A stretch of DNA of 64,000 nt from Octopus vulgaris (Eukaryota). Each line of letters opens with the position of its first letter. Position 1 is the stretch's first letter. The notes beneath the pieces were generated by a model. That model worked only from the letters and a program-made list of their open reading frames with translations. It made no database searches and was not told the origin of the DNA. Positions 2,960-62,765 of the stretch are shown here, piece after piece. The position numbers were made by a program, and so were the translations under genes. Location of the stretch: the NCBI GenBank assembly GCA_951406725.2, contig OX597817.1:18042001-18106000 (forward strand). The letters are read 5' to 3'.

Positions 2960-3962
2960 TTTATTGTAGGCACAAAATCTGTTATTTCAGTGGAGGAGCC
3001 AGTCTATTTCGTCGATCCCCAGTGCTCAACGAGTACTTATTTTATCGACTCCAAAATGATGAAGGGCAAAGTCGACATCGGTAGGAATTGAGCTAAGAAC
3101 GTAAAGCCGGAAGAAATTCTGTTGAGCATTTTGTCCGGCGTGATAACGATTCTGCCGGCTCCACTTAATATTGGTTTCAAATTTTGGCACAAGGCTAGTA
3201 ATCTCGAAGGAGGAGATTAGTCGATTACATCGACCCCAGTACTCAGCTGGTACTTATTTTATCGACCCTGAAGGATGAAAAGCAAAGTCGACCTGGGCAG
3301 AATTTGAACTAAGAACGTACAGCCAGAAGAACCGCTGCTAAGCATTTTGTCTGCACGCTATGATTCTTATTTCTTTACTGCCTACAAGGGGCTAAACACA
3401 GAGGGGACAAATAAGGACAGACAAACGGATTAAATCGATTACATCGACCCCAGTGCATAACTGGTACTTAATTTATCGACACCGAAAGGATGAACGGCAA
3501 AGTCGACCTTGGCGGAATTTGAACTCAGAACGTAACGGCAGACGAAATACCTATTTCTTTACTACCCACGAGGAGCTAAACACAGAAGGGACAAACAAGG
3601 ACAGACAAACGGATTTAGTCGATTATATCGACCCCAGTGCGTAACTGGTACTTATTTAATCGACTCCGAAAGGATGAAAGGCAAAGTCGACCTTGGCGGA
3701 ATTTGAACTCAGAACGTAACGGCAGACGAAATACATATTTCTTTACTACTCACAAGGGGCTACACACAGAGAGGACAAACAAGGACAGACAAACGGATTA
3801 AGTCGATTACATCGACCCCAGTGCGTAACTGGTACTTATTTAATCGACCCCGAAAGGATGAAAGGCAAAGTCGACCTCGGCGGAATTTGAACTCAGAACG
3901 TAACGGCAGACGAAATACCGCTGAGCACTTCGCCCGGCGTGCTAATGATTCTGCCAGCTCCC
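2960..3962 (-). mobile_element. SINE family B cluster (two old variants plus a head-and-three-body multimer)
   Basis: Repeated GTCGATTACATCGACCCCAGT / GGATGAAAGGCAAAGTCGAC bodies. Units 3368-3960 are joined at GAAATACCTATTTCTTTAC. Confidence 0.85.
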
Positions 3963-13568: not shown

Positions 13569-13677
13569 TGTATGTCTGTGAATAATATATATATATATAT
13601 ATGTATGTATATGAATATATATATATATATATATACATATATACATATATATATATATGTATATGCATACATATATA

Positions 13678-13739
<62 letters not shown>

Positions 13740-13740
<1 letters not shown>

Positions 13741-14420
13741 AGGCACAGGACGTCACAAAACATGAAATACGAAGACAAGCTTGGGTATGTGAACAACGAG
13801 AGAAACAAAGGGAAAAACAAGACAAATAACATAAAGAACGACTCTTCATCAGTTGTCGGCTGTCCATCTACTCCTCATTTCGAGCAATTAACGACAATAT
13901 GAGGTTTCGAAAGGCAGTTATTCCCGCGAACAAAAATAAAATTTGGGATTTGCGGAGGGTCAAAGTTGGTAGTAAAAACAGAACAGTGGAGACATACTAC
14001 AAACCAAACGAAAACAAACATGGTGGACCATTAGGCCAGACGAGGTAAGGTAGCGAACGCTGGAGGAATATTGTCTTTGACAAGAGAAAAGATAGAAGAG
14101 GAGACAGATAAGAATGTGCCTGGTCTGTAAGACAGACTGAAAGAAAAGAAAGATGATAACGTGAGGAAAAGAACGCTGGACGATGGTCACGTGTGAGCAA
14201 CGAGAGAGCGAGAGAGAGAGAGAGTAAAGGCGAAAGAGGGAGAGATACGAAACGGTGAAGGGGAGAAAAAAGAATTGGAGAAAGGATGAGAGCGAAATAA
14301 CAAAAGGGGGAGAAGGGAAGAAAAAGAATTAGAGAGTGGAAGTGAGATAAAACGAAGTGGGGGGGGGGGGGAGAACAGTACAGGGTAGAGAAAAGGAGAA
14401 GTAATGTGGAACTGAAAAGA
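13740..14420 (-). mobile_element. Penelope-like element terminal repeat (pLTR) abutting (TA)n
   Basis: The terminus ACAGGACGTCACAAAAC is shared with ~18685, which lies 3' of a PLE RT, and (diverged) with ~55545. Has a pyrimidine-rich upstream tract and a hammerhead core. Confidence 0.65.
13840..13961 (-). ncRNA. Rearranged (non-circularly permuted) hammerhead ribozyme candidate, copy 1
   Basis: Minus strand order: GACCCU, CCGCAAA..UUCGCGG, GAAUAA, CCUCAU-A, UUGUCG, UUGCUC-GAAAUGAGG, CGACAA-CUGAUGA-AGAGUC. Confidence 0.7.
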
Positions 14421-17844: not shown

Positions 17845-18450
17845 TATATATATCAAAAATACAAAAATGGGACAAAAACGGTAAACATCCAGACAGACGA
17901 TACAAAGAAAACAAGGACGGGTCATTCGGAGTTTTCTTTTGCCAGTCGAGTTCCTGATTATCTTTGCAATTTCGGCTGGTTTTACTCGAGAATTCTCCAA
18001 TCTGGCCAGCCCCAAAGAAAAACTAAGCTAAGAGCATTAGATTCCTTGGAAGAAAGCAGCGAATGTATACGAAAACAAAGACGAAAAATAAACGGAGAAA
18101 TGGTACACAAATACAAATAACAAGACATTACAAACAGGTGTCTTTCGACTAAGGACGAATTAAATTAAGCTGGCGTGCTTGGAAGTAAAGATTTATGGCA
18201 GAGACATAAGATTTCACAGGCACAGGGAGGAATATAGATGTTGCACGGATGGTACTCGAACCAAGAAAGAAAGGTCAGGCTTGGCTGAACAGCGGTCACG
18301 TGGGGAGAGAAGTGAGAGAGGCAGAGGGATAGAAGAATTAAGGAGGGCGAGAAAAAATGAAAGGTACAGAGTGAAGTAAAAGAGGAGGGAAGGTGAGCAT
18401 GAAGAGAAGGACAGGAAATGTGAGAGAGGGGAAACGAAAGAACGAAGAGT
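17845..18450 (-). mobile_element. PLE-type pLTR of a different family with a decayed rearranged hammerhead
   Basis: Lies between TA tracts, has a pyrimidine-rich upstream tract, and carries a permuted hammerhead scaffold at 17931-18022. Confidence 0.5.
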
Positions 18451-18614
18451 AATATATATATATATAGTGTATACATATATATACATATATATATATAGTG
18501 TATATATATATATATGCATTTACTATATATATATGCGTGGCGTTCAATCATATAATAATATAAATAAAATATATATAGGCATATATGCATATATGTACAT
18601 ACTGATATATATAT

Positions 18615-18679
<65 letters not shown>

Positions 18680-19640
18680 TATATGGGTACAGGACGTCAC
18701 AAAACGTAAACAACATGAAATACAAAATATGAAAACATGGAATAAGAAATTTTTGTGGGGTGGGGTGAAGGAAGACACTGTGGATCAAGAAGTCACGCAG
18801 TTTGTGGGCTCGTTTGAAGGAAGGAAGGGGTATGTTGGGGAAAGTATGTGAGGTGGAGGGGTCGGACTGGAGTCGCTAGAAAGCTCGGAGAATGGTACGT
18901 TGGAGGGGCAGGGTAGGAGTGGTAGGTGAGTGGAAACAGGAGACAGACAACAGCGGGGCGGCTGCGGGGGGAGAGAGAGCAGAGGTATGGTTCACGGAAC
19001 GTGGCTTCTCAAGGGCTGTGTGGATAGTGGTGCGGGGATATCCATGAAGTTTGAAGTGGCGAGCTATGAGTTGAGACTGAGTCTCAAAGTCATGGTTTTG
19101 TCATTGCAGAGCCTGCGCAGACGGAGGAATTGGGAGTAGGAGATGGAGAGCTTGGTGTGGGTAGGGTGGGAGGAGGAGAAGTTAAGGTAGGAGTGTGAGT
19201 CGGTGTGTTTGTAGTGGATGGAGGTAGTGAGAGCGGAGTGGTATATTTTGGCAGAAATGTTGAAATTCGACGGAAGTGTTGGAAATAGTGCAGGAGAATT
19301 CGAGAGTAGGATGGAAGGATTGGACAAAAGAGAGGAAGGAGTCTAGTTGTTCGCAGGAAAGTGAGATCGCACTGATACAGACATCAATACAACGACCATT
19401 ATAGTTCGGGAGTGGGACCAGTGAATCAAGAATATTTGGGCCTCAACGCAGCTAGCAAACAGGTTCGCATAGTTGGGGCCCATTCCCATTCCCATGGCCA
19501 CTCCAGAGCTGTTGGTAAAAATCCCCCTCGAACGAGAAGCAGTTGAGGGAAAGAACAAGTTCTGCCAGACAAAGAAGTGTGGAGGTGTCAGGTTGGGGTT
19601 GGGTCGAAGGTCCAGAAAGTGTTTAAGTGCAAGAAGTTCT
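18680..19640 (-). mobile_element. Penelope-like retroelement, decayed RT (Neptune-like)
   Basis: GVAMG..MGPNYANLF and YKHTDSHSYLNFSSSHP...YSQFLRLRRLC are PLE RT and thumb motifs. Frameshifted; ends at (TA)n. Confidence 0.8.
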
Positions 19641-19837
19641 TCGTTGTAGGTACGATAATGAGTTGTTATTGTTCCTGAACGTACGGTCCACTTCTTGTTT
19701 TCTATACCTGCCATGGACTGCTTGAAGCTTACAAACTTCCTACACTTGGATCCCTACCCTTCAAAATGTGACCTCGTGTGTACCGTTGGCGATTTTTTCC
19801 CTCTGTCTTCCCTTCTCTGGATCTTTTCTTCTCCAAT

Positions 19838-19872
19838 GTTTCCGACGAAGAGCTCCGCTCGAAACGTTAAAA
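19838..19872 (+). ncRNA. Minimal type I hammerhead variant (U4C core) in a pLTR
   Basis: GUUU-CCGACGA-A-GAGC-UCC-GCUC-GAAACGUU-AAA, with a palindromic ACGU stem III. Confidence 0.5.
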
Positions 19873-19966
19873 GCCTCCTTCTTTCCTTCTTTCCTGAGCG
19901 TCCAATAATACTATATTTGTTCCACGTCCTCGCGTTGTTGTGTTTTTTGTGGTTTCTTGTTTGGAT

Positions 19967-22549: not shown

Positions 22550-23312
22550 CTGGTAGAATTTCGAACCCATCCATTTGTTCACTGCATAATACCTCAATTT
22601 CAATTCTCACCATCCATGCTGTAAAAAGAGAGGTGTTATTCAGTGCCTAAAACATCGCGCAAAGTCTATAAGTAGTGATCCTGATACACACAACGAAGAA
22701 ATTTTCAGGCTAAGAAACAATCTTCTATTCAACAGCTACCCAGAAAACATACTATCCACTCCACTTAGGAAGAGGAGAGAGGATGAAACCAATAAACTGA
22801 CCACAGTCTGTCTAGCCTATGTCAAAGACCTCTCGAAAAAGATACAAAAGATATGCGGTCCATATGACACCAGGACATTATTCAGAAGTAATATAACACT
22901 TTGCAAATATCTCTTCCGAGTAAAACCACTCATAAAAGAGAATATGACCAAAAACTGCGTGCATTCAATCCCATGCAGTTGCGGTAGGTTATACAAAAGC
23001 AAACATGCCGCCTCCTTAAGATTGGGGTGGAAGAACATCGCAAAGCCGTGACACAAGGAGATATTGAAAAATCGGGTATAGCCGATCATTTTTGGAAAAA
23101 CGGAGACCACCTCCTCCTGTGGGATGAAGTTAAAATAATAGACAGAGAACCCCATTGGAAAATACGAAAACTAAAAGAGGCAGCACATATAGTAGGACGC
23201 AATAACCTCCTAAGCAGACCTAGTGCAGATATCAATGTAATATGGGAACCAGCATTAAGAAAAGATAAAATGTGAGGTTTATAAGCCCCAAAACTCACTA
23301 TATAATTACCTG

Positions 23313-35838: not shown

Positions 35839-36592
35839 ACCTTTCGACTATAGGCGCAAGGTCTGAAATTTGGGCAAGGAGGATAGTCGATTACATCGAT
35901 CCCAGTACTCAACTGGTACTTAATTTATCGACCCCGAAAGGATGAAAGGCAAAGTCGACCTCGGCGGAATTTGAACTCAGAACGTAGCGGCAGACGAAAT
36001 GCCTATTTCTTTACTACCACAAGGGGCTAAACACAGAGAGGACAAACAAGGGCATACAAACGGATTAAGTTGATTATATCGACCCCAGTACGTAACTGGT
36101 ACTTATTTAATCGACCCCGAAAGGATGAAAGCAAAGTCGACCTCGGTGGAATTTGAACTCAGAACGTAGCGGCAGACGAAATGCCTATTTCTTTACTACC
36201 CACAAGGGGCTAAACACAGAGGGGACAAACAGGGACAGACAGACAGATTAAGTCGATTATATCGACCCCAGTACGTAACTGGTACTTATTTAATCGACCC
36301 CGAAAGGATGAAAGCAAAGTCGACCTCGGCGGAATTTGAACTCAGAACGTAGCGGCAGACGAAATGCCTATTTCTTTACTACCCACAAGGGGCTAAACAC
36401 AGAGAGGACAAACAGGGACAGACAGACAGATTAAGTTGATTATATCGACCCCAGTGCGTAACTGGTACTTAAATTATCGACCCCGAAAGGATGAAAGGCA
36501 AAGTCGACCTCGACGGAATTTGAACTCAGAACGTAACGGCAGACGAAATACGGATACGCATTTCGCCCGGCCTGCTAACAATTCTGCCAACT
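35839..36592 (-). mobile_element. SINE B tetramer (one head, four bodies) inside one 16-bp TSD
   Basis: AAACTTGGAATAATAA at 35823 and 36602. Internal junctions read AAAGAAATAGG|CATTTCGTCTG. Confidence 0.85.
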
Positions 36593-54422: not shown

Positions 54423-55308
54423 CTCTCCCATGTGTCCAAAATCTGGATTTTCAGAAAGAGAAATCGACCTGCTAATTCGTATATTACAAGCGCAATCTGT
54501 GAGTGGAACAGTAAAAATATGCAAGACTTTTCTCAAGTTCCAAATGTGAATTTGTCTGTGTTAACTACATCCCAAAGATGGAGCCTTGTATCTTTGTTGG
54601 AAACCGGCTCCGTCCTCAGTGGAAGATTTATAATAATTAAAAAAATAGAGACATAATTAGCTAGGAACAGATATATTCGGGGCTTACGTATTTCACGTGA
54701 GATTATGGATCTGTTCCTGAAATTTCTTCCCGAAGGTTTACACCTAAGCAAGGACTTTTTATAGATGACCAGCTGTTACCTATATATGCAAGTTTCTTTC
54801 TCCCCATGCCGCCAAAGTTGTCCAAGGGAAAGACAAGGTCCAACACAGCTTGGCACCAGTCTCGTTGTAGGCTTTGCTATCAAAACCGAAAGACCAGAAC
54901 TGATGCCACAAAGAATCCTGTACGTCGCTTTAGTAGTCTAGTGTGACGTAATGCAATTCAGTGTTCACAGCATCCAATTGCACTTGGAATATCCAGTGCA
55001 GAGGTTGCAAATAACTACAATGGTGAAACGTAGATAGAGAATAAATGATATAAACCGAATCTTGTGTTTATCACACTTATACGTACATTTTGTCTGTATA
55101 TCATAATCAATAATACTGCTTAGCACAGTAGTGACCATACAGTTGCAGTCATACATCTAATTATACATACAAGCACACAATATGATATCCTATATCTTGA
55201 TATACTACCACAGGAAGACGGTGCTCCAGCCTGGCCCCAACATCTGGCTGAAACCAGTAACAGAAATGAATAAGAATATGTATGCATATGTATTTGTCAC
55301 CACTTTAA

Positions 55309-55430
55309 CCCTCCGCAAAACCCAATTTTTTAAAAATTTGCTTTGCGGGAACGACTGTTTAAATGAAGTCGCGTCTTGTCCCCACGTTCGAAACGCGGAA
55401 TAGATAAAACAGGGGACAACTGATGAAGGG
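55309..55430 (+). ncRNA. Rearranged (non-circularly permuted) hammerhead ribozyme candidate, copy 2
   Basis: CCCU, CCGCAAA..UUUGCGG, GAACG, UCGCGU-C, UUGUCCCC, CGUUC-GAAACGCGG, GGGGACAA-CUGAUGA-AGGG. Part of a pLTR fragment (55300-55565). Confidence 0.75.
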
Positions 55431-56174
55431 ATTGTTCTTTATGTTGCCTGTCTTGTTTCTCTATTTGTTTCTTTCGTTCTGAAAAAGTCTGTTTTCCATG
55501 TTTTTGTTTTTTATGCTCTCGTTTCTCATTTTGTTCACGTTTTTTACGCCCTGTACCCATATATGCATGTATATATACATATATATGTAGGTATGTACAT
55601 ATATGTATGTCTATATGCATATATATATATATTATTTATATTATTATATATATACTTGTATGTGTGTGCCTGTGTGCAATGACATTAAACTGCATCTGTA
55701 AGGAATCTGATTCGGAAGTTCCAGGGCTTTGAAGCGTGTGTGTTCCCCACCACCTTTTAGCCACCATTGTTTCCTGGTCTACTCTGACCCGGAGTAATAC
55801 AGCTCTCAGTGTTCCAGCTATGGTTTAATTAGTGTATTAGGGCATTCCTACATATGCATGTGAAGACTGGATCCGGTGGTCTCTGCGGAAGAAACATTCA
55901 TGGTCCAACGAAAGGGAAGGCGGCTGCAGCAACGTATTGTATAGTTCAGAGAACAGGACGAGGCAACTAAAACATCTTGGTCATCCACTGCATCCATCTC
56001 CACCTTCAGTCCTTTTGACATAGACTTGTCACAGGACTAAAAATAGTCACGGATGAGAGAATAAAGTTGACGGTGCACAACTCATGTTCACTTAAAAAAA
56101 AGTTACCGTGGAAGTTTTCAGTCATCCTCAACGACGACTCAACGATCCTTGTCACTCCGACAGACGAACGTGTA

Positions 56175-60777: not shown

Positions 60778-61376
60778 GAGAGTAGAAAGGCAAGTTTTGT
60801 CTAGCGAATGTTTTAAAAAAAGATGGGTGAATGTAGCAAGGATGGCACGTATGAATGACGAAGCCACCTTGAGCATAATCCTATGAACCCAGAAATTGAA
60901 AACAGAGGGTTACCCACTTGCAAACAAATGTGGTAACATATAACAATATTGACCAAGGTTACCGTGGTCTTTTTCGTAGGCTTTTCTTCCCACGGATAAA
61001 CCTTACTTGCTTTCCCCTTTACACCATATATCATAACACTGTGATACACAATCCCTATTGATCGTTCTTTTTTTCCTCTTCCCCTTTTTTCCCCCTTTTT
61101 TCTTCTTTTTTCATTTCTCTTTTCTTTTGTTCCTTTTCCTTTTTTTTCTTTTTTTTTCTTTTTCTTTTTTATTTTATTTATTTATTTATTTTTTTATTTT
61201 TTATTTTTTTTGTTCTTTTCTTCCCTTTTACGATCCCTCTTGATCGAAAACCTACGCCACCCCCTTTTTGTTTTTTTTTTCCTTTTGTTTTTTGTTTTCT
61301 TCATCTCCCAAAAGAAAAGCTCTACCTTGTAACTTGTCCCATCTGTGTGCAGCCCTGTGTGGTCAATAAAGAAACT
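60777..61376 (+). mobile_element. Tx1/L1-clade LINE, short 5'-truncated copy in (TCTA)n
   Basis: Near-identical to ~62195-62766. Ends AATAAAGAAACT|TATCTATC. Confidence 0.85.
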
Positions 61377-61398
61377 TATCTATCTGTCTATCTATCTG

Positions 61399-61482
<84 letters not shown>

Positions 61483-62765
61483 GACGACGGTGAACAGGTG
61501 TGGTCGCCGTTTGTGAGGCACGCTTTCCCGCAGCTCGTCTCCATGACCGAACTGCAGTCGTGGATCAAAAAGAGGCCGAGGAAGGGCGATTGGCACCGCG
61601 AGTGTCGCGTTGCTCTCAAGCAACTCTGCCGTCCCGGGTCGACCTTGAGTGACTTCAACACAACCAAAGCATTCTATAGGGGATTAGTGGAGGGGAGGTA
61701 CGACGACGAGCTCGGGGCGAACCTGGACGTCGACGAGGAGTACCTGACCCGCCTGTTCAGGACGACTTTCGGGCCAGGGCCCATGGACAACTTCCAGAGA
61801 TCCCTGGCCTGGCAGTGCTACCGAGAAGCGCTACCCGTTCGGGATAAGCTCTACAGACACGGCTCGAGAAACACGGGGCCGACCTGCCCGAGATGCGGTC
61901 AGAGCAACGAAACCGTTCTGCACGCACTCGTGCAGTGTCCAACAATTTCCGATCTGTGGGCTTATGTCGAACAACTGCTGTCACGTGTGGGACGAGTCGG
62001 TTTATCAGCTGAGTCTATCGTCAATATTGTCACGCCTCCTTCCTTCAAACGGGAAGGAAGAGCTATTTTCATCATCCTTGTGGCTATGGCGAAAGAATGT
62101 ATCTGGTGGACGCGTCTGAAAGGATTGGAGACAAACACTTTCCTCTCTGGTCAATCTCTCATCAACTTCTTCAAGTACCACTTGAAAAGGAAAGTGAGAG
62201 TAGAGAGGCAAGTTTTGTCTAGCGAATGTTTTAAAAAAAGATGGGTGAATGTAGCAAGGATGGCACGTATGAATGACGAAGCCACCTTGAGCATAATCCT
62301 ATGAACCCAGAAATTGAAAACAGAGGGTTACCCACTTGCAAACAAATGTGGTAACATATAACAATATTGACCAAGGTTACCGTGGTCTTTTTCGTAGGTT
62401 TTTCTTCCCACGGATAAACCTTACTTGCTTTCCCCTTTACACCATATATCATAACACTGTGATACACGATCCCTATTGATCGTTTTTCCTCTTCCCCTTT
62501 TTTTCCCCTTTTTTCTTCTTTTTTCATTTCTCTTTCCTTTTGTTCCTTTTCCTTTTCTTTTTTTTCTTTTTATTCTTTTTATTTTATTCAATTTTTTTTT
62601 TTTTGTTTTTGTTCTTTTCTTCCCTTTTACGATCCCTCTTGATCGAAAACCTACGCCACCCCCTTTTTTTTCTTTTGTTTTTTGTTCTCTTCATCCCCCA
62701 AAAGAAAAGCTCTACCTTGTAACTTGTCCCATCTGTGTGCAGCCCTGTGTGGCCAATAAAGAAAC

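Follow-up and report, generated by a model that had tools for sequence, protein, structure and literature searches.

The 64,000-nt window analyzed here (Octopus vulgaris GCA_951406725.2, contig OX597817.1, 18,042,001-18,106,000 of the forward strand) contains, at 55309-55430, an RNA motif with every core letter of a hammerhead ribozyme, located within a copy of a repeat that lacks open reading frames (Table 1). The initial annotation placed the core letters and five helices correctly, and it was right to set the strand order apart from types I, II and III (block orders CGS, GSC and SCG): the order is S-G-C, with a pseudoknotted core. It overlooked a sixth helix, P6. Stem I, drawn there as 8 bp between UUGUCCCC (55376-83) and GGGGACAA (55412-19), has both strands at those positions and does pair, but it is most likely 7 bp long because P6 takes G55412; position 55383 is other than C in most copies. 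The predicted cut position, after C55375, is assigned by analogy.

Table 1. Positions of the ribozyme elements and related repeat copies in the window.
Feature	Position	Strand	Remarks
P4 5′ strand, CCCU	55309-55312	+	Pairs with 55427-55430; closes the A9/G10.1 break
P5 hairpin, between P4 5′ strand and G10.1	55313-55348	+	CCGCAAA 55313-19 / UUUGCGG 55342-48
Stem II 5′ strand, GAACG	55349-55353	+	G55349 is G10.1; partner 55385-55389
P6 5′ strand	55355-55364	+	Pairs with 55403-55412
GAA strand of the P6/stem III internal loop	55365-55368	+	Opposite AGUA in most copies
Stem III 3′ strand UCGCGU (55369-74) plus C55375; GUC triplet	55369-55375	+	Predicted cut after C55375
Stem I strand 3′ of the cut site	55376-55382	+	Partner 55413-55419
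Stem II 3′ strand CGUUC (55385-89), GAAA core (55390-93), stem III 5′ strand ACGCGG (55393-98)	55385-55398	+	
P6 3′ strand	55403-55412	+	
Stem I 3′ strand, CUGAUGA core (55420-26), P4 3′ strand AGGG (55427-30)	55413-55430	+	
Host repeat copy, subfamily A, 5′-truncated	55289-55654	+	Ends in a (TA)n-rich tract
Second ribozyme copy, subfamily B, AUA triplet	13842-13959	-	P4 and stem II decayed; host repeat ~13661-14305
Third ribozyme copy, family D	17933-18055	-	Core decayed; intact relatives elsewhere in the genome
A/B repeat 3′ fragment with tail, ribozyme-less	18533-18757	-	

A five-helix descriptor with minimum lengths of 4, 4, 4, 3 and 4 bp, all of which the 55309-55430 site exceeds, matched once in the window, at this site, and once in 3220 first-order Markov copies, on both strands; because the descriptor was written from this very copy, the window match arises by construction and the shuffle rate is the real test. 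As the initial annotation had anticipated, the motif escapes type I-III descriptors: an Rfam search returned nothing at the gathering score and two chance matches only at E<5, and the methods section of Craig et al. 2021 (PMC8557442) agrees. The best nested fold of the window copy (z -1.77), a calculation in which pseudoknots are unscored, buries the strands of stems II and III in other hairpins.

Several other elements share the window. A decayed Penelope/Poseidon-like ORF fragment at 22590-23170 runs into a GIY-YIG-like start, with no real Pfam match; a LINE-like ORF fragment lies at 61333-62304; and an abundant interspersed and tandem repeat of 180-215 bp occupies 1710-2150, 3000-3960, 35885-36590 and other positions. 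At ~19830-19900, a minimal type I PLE hammerhead core was noted by eye in the inverted terminal repeat of another PLE family. The 3′ end of a restriction-endonuclease retroelement, which we take to be HERO-like, lies at 54439-54655 (+), with a hairpin-rich tail containing GAAAC and no visible split core; inspection by eye of the 330 bp following ten tblastn matches to HERO-type elements (fetched loci and window), a weak test, likewise revealed no split core.

Covariation and core conservation in A/B, and a layout shared by five sequence groups

Searches of the genome (2.8 Gb, 227 contigs) with the 55309-55430 copy and with the second copy (window 13800-13980) returned 2785 and 3021 first-look candidates, figures that are not copy numbers because 40 of each were scored. 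The collected copies split into subfamilies A and B, with 31 aligned in each; the covariation set comprised 56 of these 62 after exclusion of three near-duplicates, L013 (which resembles L007) and two copies that were second in their locus. Across this set, the structure originally proposed is 90.8% paired, compared to 85.3% in shuffles and only 36-49% in slid controls. The covariation that the initial annotation had named as a check is present, with 126 cells changed on both sides versus 56 in shuffles (0/500), although such cells overstate the number of events because most of the A/B signal traces to a single split between the two subfamilies, and the number of pairs with a both-side change does not go beyond shuffles (60/500).

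Both-side changes occur in stems I, II and III alike. Stem II, formed with the upstream strand, is 91.4% paired, with 52 both-side cells distributed over four of its five pairs and a third pair type, GC, in three rows of subfamily A; stem III has such changes in three of six pairs. P4 is 96% paired, with no both-side change within A/B, and G10.1:C11.1 is GC in 46 of 56 copies. The core, scored on CUGAnGA, GAAA, A15.1:U16.1 and H17, is intact in 19/29 A copies and 21/27 B copies. At non-CpG positions, core letters depart from the subfamily majority in 8/319 cells versus 199/3185 elsewhere (A) and in 5/297 versus 163/2966 (B), making departures 2.5 to 3 times rarer in the core. Most genomic copies are decayed, and this conservation may reflect selection on master copies, not on each insert.

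The same layout recurs in three further families of this genome. Family C was reached with a motif from the tail of a published Naiad, which matches the genome exactly at 218 places against none for the control; family D was found through the decayed copy in the window (Table 1); and family E emerged from a descriptor match, with 181 exact matches to a 19-mer and copies that are young, at 96-99% identity. Strand order and helices in C, D and E are as in A/B while the letters are unrelated, and P5 is again present with other letters. P4 reads CCCU/AGGG in A/B, CCA/UGG in C, UUUCUU/AAGAAA in D and CCCCG/CGGGG in E, with pairing kept throughout, and the NUH triplet varies among GUC, AUA, GUA, AUC and GUU. 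This turnover of letters between families, rather than the A/B counts, is the strongest support for the fold. Together with the A/B covariation, it bears out the original proposals that stem II recruits an upstream strand and that two helices bridge A9 to G10.1. With a strict descriptor, the A loci gave 5 passing sites and the B loci 8, from 31 aligned copies apiece; 4/20 C loci, 7/30 D loci and 19/25 E loci passed, and none of 20 loci fetched with the other PLE RT of the window. The youngest family has the highest rate, in keeping with a decay of inserts over time. A further split-ribozyme variant, related to D, lies in tandem upstream of a D copy at locus L155 (~1050-1250, element orientation).

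P6 extends stem III through an internal loop and connects the strand that follows stem II with the one that precedes stem I. It is 84.6% paired, with 25 both-side cells versus 9.2 in shuffles (0/500). Its mean ungapped length is 7.5 bp in A, 8 bp in D and 9 bp in E; in B and C it is weak (4-5 bp), being interrupted by mismatches. The internal loop sets AGUA opposite GAA in most A and B copies, an arrangement that we take, by eye, to be bulged-G-like, and consists of a tandem GA plus a 3-nt bulge in C and D, presumably kink-turn-like by the same visual criterion. A sharp bend at this loop would fold stem III back toward the far ends of stems I and II. The window copy reads AAUA at 55399-55402, and its differences from most A copies (55361, 55364 and 55400) all fall in P6 or in the loop between P6 and stem III, so this copy may be impaired; it had been called the best copy, which holds inside the window and not across subfamily A.

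Repeat units and the Naiad connection

The A/B unit is ORF-less and ~700 bp long, with head-to-tail closure at about 690-720 bp and at most ~590 bp common to copies upstream of the ribozyme; the corresponding units are ~760-800 bp in D and 759 bp in E. Copies end in (TA)n and a short tail, sometimes with an inverted 5′ copy, and the family thus displays several PLE hallmarks: a (TA)n target, partial tandems (L012, L014 and L021), inverted 5′ copies (L014, L017, L046 and L049) and a tail of 30-40 bp. A/B is likely a small mobile repeat. Among 90 A/B/D loci and 25 E loci, no ORF-bearing parent was found. The upstream flanks of L006 and L050 include another repeat inserted at (TA)n, within which a type I hammerhead whose stem III is long was noted by eye, in the opposite orientation.

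An RT fragment elsewhere in the window (18757-19760, minus strand) was considered as the source of the PLE link and rejected: it belongs to another PLE family, and none of 20 loci with its relatives matched the A/B ribozyme region. The fragment is a decayed PLE, without a useful Pfam match, whose relatives run into a C-terminal zinc-finger/GIY-YIG-like region and another repeat, and which we read as Neptune-like. The ribozyme-less A/B 3′ fragment adjoins it, apparently by chance.

The published description of Naiads supplies a different candidate. Craig et al. 2021 (PMC8557442) describe Naiads as PLEs that target (TA)n and "lack canonical HHR", while listing nine Naiads with HHR_core and eight, including Naiad_Ovul, with HHR_half_core; the spread of Naiads without hammerheads has served as an argument that such ribozymes might be mere parasites of PLEs. 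From the supplement of that paper, we parsed by eye 51 FASTA passages: 27 centered on CTGATGA (places 26-52 of 62) and 24 on three other CUGAnGA variants (places 5-12 of each). The tails that gave a fold come from several phyla, as inferred from file order. Ten of these passages contain the split fold and six a plain type-CSG arrangement, the rest being coding, Chlamys records or unparsed. Naiad_Obim and Naiad_Ovul carry the split fold in their tails. It also lies in three records adjoining the Aacu, Anas and Movir headers, in the one that precedes Naiad_Mley, and in four passages that fall mid-record, without an element header. By their headers, four of the six CSG passages are nematode Naiads, each a plain CSG with a flanking helix.

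In the octopus genome, a Naiad RT search gave 39 matches, of which 18 were fetched. In four of these 18 loci, and in L126, Naiad RT pieces (DKA motif, catalytic YIDD and C-terminus, in that order) are followed by the family C split core, giving family C the arrangement that marks a Naiad, an RT with the DKA motif upstream of the 3′ UTR. The same loci were rejected as A/B parents: A/B pieces turned up in two of the 18, each time in opposite orientation and at a distance of 4-5 kb from the matched RT piece. No Naiad RT piece occurs in the 90 A/B/D loci or the 25 E loci; the A/B unit of the window lacks the Naiad ORF (N-terminal GIY-YIG, C-terminal RT with DKA) and closes on itself at 690-720 bp; and A/B and family C share no alignable similarity outside (TA)n. 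The PLE link first drawn for the window family has thus narrowed to the Naiad clade, and its portrayal as a PLE terminal repeat with its own ORF is not upheld, the 90 A/B/D loci being devoid of Naiad RT. Because that RT is absent from the A/B/D/E loci, mobilization by Naiads is argued from shared fold and target, and we think it probable for A/B. The split fold itself is likely the missing ribozyme of Naiads, and is predicted to self-cleave.

Predicted cleavage and alternative readings

RNA reads and insertion breakpoints offered two views of cleavage. Three RNA runs from a related organism yielded 621, 567 and 346 family-like reads, placed from ~6% of each run and in both orientations. Read starts did not pile up at the predicted site, 55376; the only such pile-up comprised five molecules at 55371. 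Read depth rose ~5-fold across 55387, where 157, 145 and 79 reads carried inverted loose ends. A fold-back at the cut end was examined and rejected as their source: with a closer reference, the joint contains five letters that fit neither arm (0.88-0.92 agreement), and the expected fold-back motif had no match in the octopus genome versus 63 for the unjoined pattern. Two contig controls lacked the joint among the rows listed, and the inverted joint is better explained by one expressed inverted locus. At L029:1556 (RNA runs X22 and X23), a well expressed transcript of the related organism joins inverted family pieces through five extra letters; this transcript would form long double-stranded RNA.

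The 5′ breakpoints of 80 distinct E copies (from 100 listed of 181 matches) showed no spike at the site, with one at 0 and three at +4 to +6; about 25 stop at -227 to -235, a subfamily difference and not truncation. Single copies starting at the predicted site occur at L184, L287 and L090, the last from the 20 C loci, and most genomic copies span the cut site. The RNA and breakpoint tests lend cleavage no support, but they are weak, since the reads derive mostly from old inserts within other transcripts. We consider it very likely that the family motif is an active hammerhead, and give slightly better than even chances that the decayed window copy still cuts.

Our preferred reading, held with good confidence, is a reverse S-G-C hammerhead of six helices whose chain is open at A9/G10.1, borne by an ORF-less ~700 bp repeat likely mobilized by Naiads and predicted to cleave as a monomer after C55375; all five sequence groups of this genome have this layout. 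The six helices would rebuild the standard core, and the RNA would be cut after C55375 as a monomer; the monomeric design proposed at the outset fits the long stems present. P6, continuing stem III via the bent internal loop, would tie together the far ends of stems I and II and substitute for the loop I-loop II contact, while P4 and P5 would stack at the A9/G10.1 gap, holding it shut. A transcript over two tandem units could then be cut at both ribozymes to unit length and its ends re-joined into a circle, as in the model of Cervera and De la Peña; a Naiad RT/endonuclease might copy the circle into (TA)n sites, often past one unit, which would produce partial tandems and inverted 5′ copies. 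Copies that span the cut site are the majority in the genome, which requires a template that was re-ligated, had escaped cleavage or was read by template jumping; these spanning copies are what suggests a circular intermediate, to which we assign an even chance.

The placement of stem II separates this reading from a plain type-SGC hammerhead, in which stem II would form with the bases that directly follow CUGAUGA, past an insertion of 1-3 nt, leaving the upstream strand and P4 as an off-switch that locks away both stem II strands. Such pairing is feasible, at 83% with a 1-nt insert and 78% with a 3-nt insert (1/500 for percent paired), and a one-base bulge after A9 is usual in PLE hammerheads as described by Cervera and De la Peña 2014 (PMC4209133). 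The downstream option, however, collects 1 and 6 both-side cells (201/500 and 47/500) against 52 for the upstream strand. In the printed C, D and E copies, moreover, the bases that follow CUGAnGA match the partner of P4 rather than the strand preceding GAAA; the upstream strand begins in every case with G opposite C11.1, a G that the descriptor required. We regard the plain type-SGC arrangement as improbable.

A structure derived from a hammerhead and kept as a recognition signal for a retroelement protein, folding but cleaving very slowly or not at all, would account for RNA reads and 5′ breakpoints without a cleavage signal and for copies that span the site, and the break does adjoin A9/G10.1, the metal site of the hammerhead. 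Retention of the catalytic letters, G10.1:C11.1 and the NUH triplet while the helix letters all turn over is, however, the pattern expected of catalysis and not of a binding site, making a mere recognition signal unlikely. Chance, or the misreading of a dimer-type minimal PLE hammerhead as a monomer, appears very improbable: minimal PLE hammerheads are abundant and dimeric with a palindromic stem III, as described in PMC4209133, and stem III of subfamily A is near-palindromic, but those of subfamily B and family D are non-palindromic and fully paired. With no hairpin stem II after CUGAUGA, pairing in trans would still leave the A9-G10.1 break, and one descriptor match in 3220 shuffled windows argues against chance.

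Comparison with known hammerheads and retroelements

Among retroelement ribozymes, the minimal type I hammerheads of PLEs (Cervera and De la Peña 2014, PMC4209133) resemble the octopus motif in their PLE-type repeats, an extra base after A9 and a proposed role in circular templates, and differ, as described there, in canonical order, a hairpin stem II, a tiny stem III and dependence on dimers. Naiads share the (TA)n target, partial tandems, inverted 5′ copies and tail, and in the available text of Craig et al. 2021 (PMC8557442) canonical hammerheads are said to be lacking and the HHR cores are left without a fold. Non-LTR retrozymes, as presented in bioRxiv 10.64898/2026.07.22.740005, are likewise non-autonomous, ribozyme-bearing and thought to depend on PLEs, but carry type I hammerheads in tandem arrays, whereas octopus copies are mostly single and 5′-truncated or partial tandems of 690-770 bp with a split fold in place of type I. 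In the literature consulted, mostly outside subscription journals, we came across neither this fold nor any folding of Naiad hammerheads. The Xenopus precedent named in the initial annotation for non-circular permutations could not be traced: the word is absent from the main text of Eckert et al. 2023 (PMC10085705), and no such paper was found in the literature consulted.

The closest structural relatives are the type-SGC RNAs, HRIMA-1 and its variants, of Eckert et al. 2023 (PMC10085705), whose text divides the hammerhead into blocks S, G and C and reports that SGC, CSG and one GCS RNA cleave in vitro. Both designs have the order cut site, GAAA, CUGAnGA, a pseudoknotted core, a short linker between stems I and II, and a helix joining the far ends of these stems. 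Guided by the text of that paper, we infer that P6 is the equivalent of its stem I-II interaction ("I") helix, clear in A, D and E and interrupted in B and C. As described there, block C of type SGC (stem I strand, CUGAnGA, stem II strand) is intact; in the octopus fold it is split, with its ends within the added P4; the P5 hairpin is a further insertion, and stem III runs on into the I-II helix. Type-CSG RNAs, represented in that account by two natural sequences, share the cyclic block order and differ in having an intact block C and neither P4 nor P5. The type-SGC RNAs came from searches of hairpin-ribozyme neighborhoods, RefSeq, metagenomes and metatranscriptomes, and the main text names no animal retroelement host.

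The blocks were assumed uninterruptible in that work because no alignment contained more than 1-2 inserted bases next to CUGAnGA; core variants in the available text of Perreault 2011 are similarly 1-2 nt insertions or substitutions, and neither source describes a hammerhead with a larger insertion at the A9/stem II junction. In the octopus families, the direct 0-2 nt link from A9 to the stem II 5′ strand is absent, and the covarying partner lies 77 nt upstream of A9. Should the fold cleave, it would contradict the published premise that CUGAnGA cannot be parted from its stem II strand, move non-circular permutations from a few hundred mostly environmental RNAs to an abundant clade of animal retroelements, and overturn the reading that Naiads spread without hammerheads. 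The split fold supplies genome searches with a new descriptor and, having its ends inside the core, offers a natural scaffold; young family E copies (96-99% identical) are ready constructs for assay.

Collectively, we judge it rather likely that a whole branch of reverse-order hammerheads resides in Naiads and the non-coding units they carry along, in hosts ranging from ctenophores and cnidarians to nematodes and cephalopods, and that its commonest form is a seventh wiring beyond the six published permutations, active, open at A9/G10.1, and closed by a two-helix clamp that may act as a folding switch in retrotransposition. The motif works like a hammerhead, with cleavage predicted, yet fails one defining connection of every type described.
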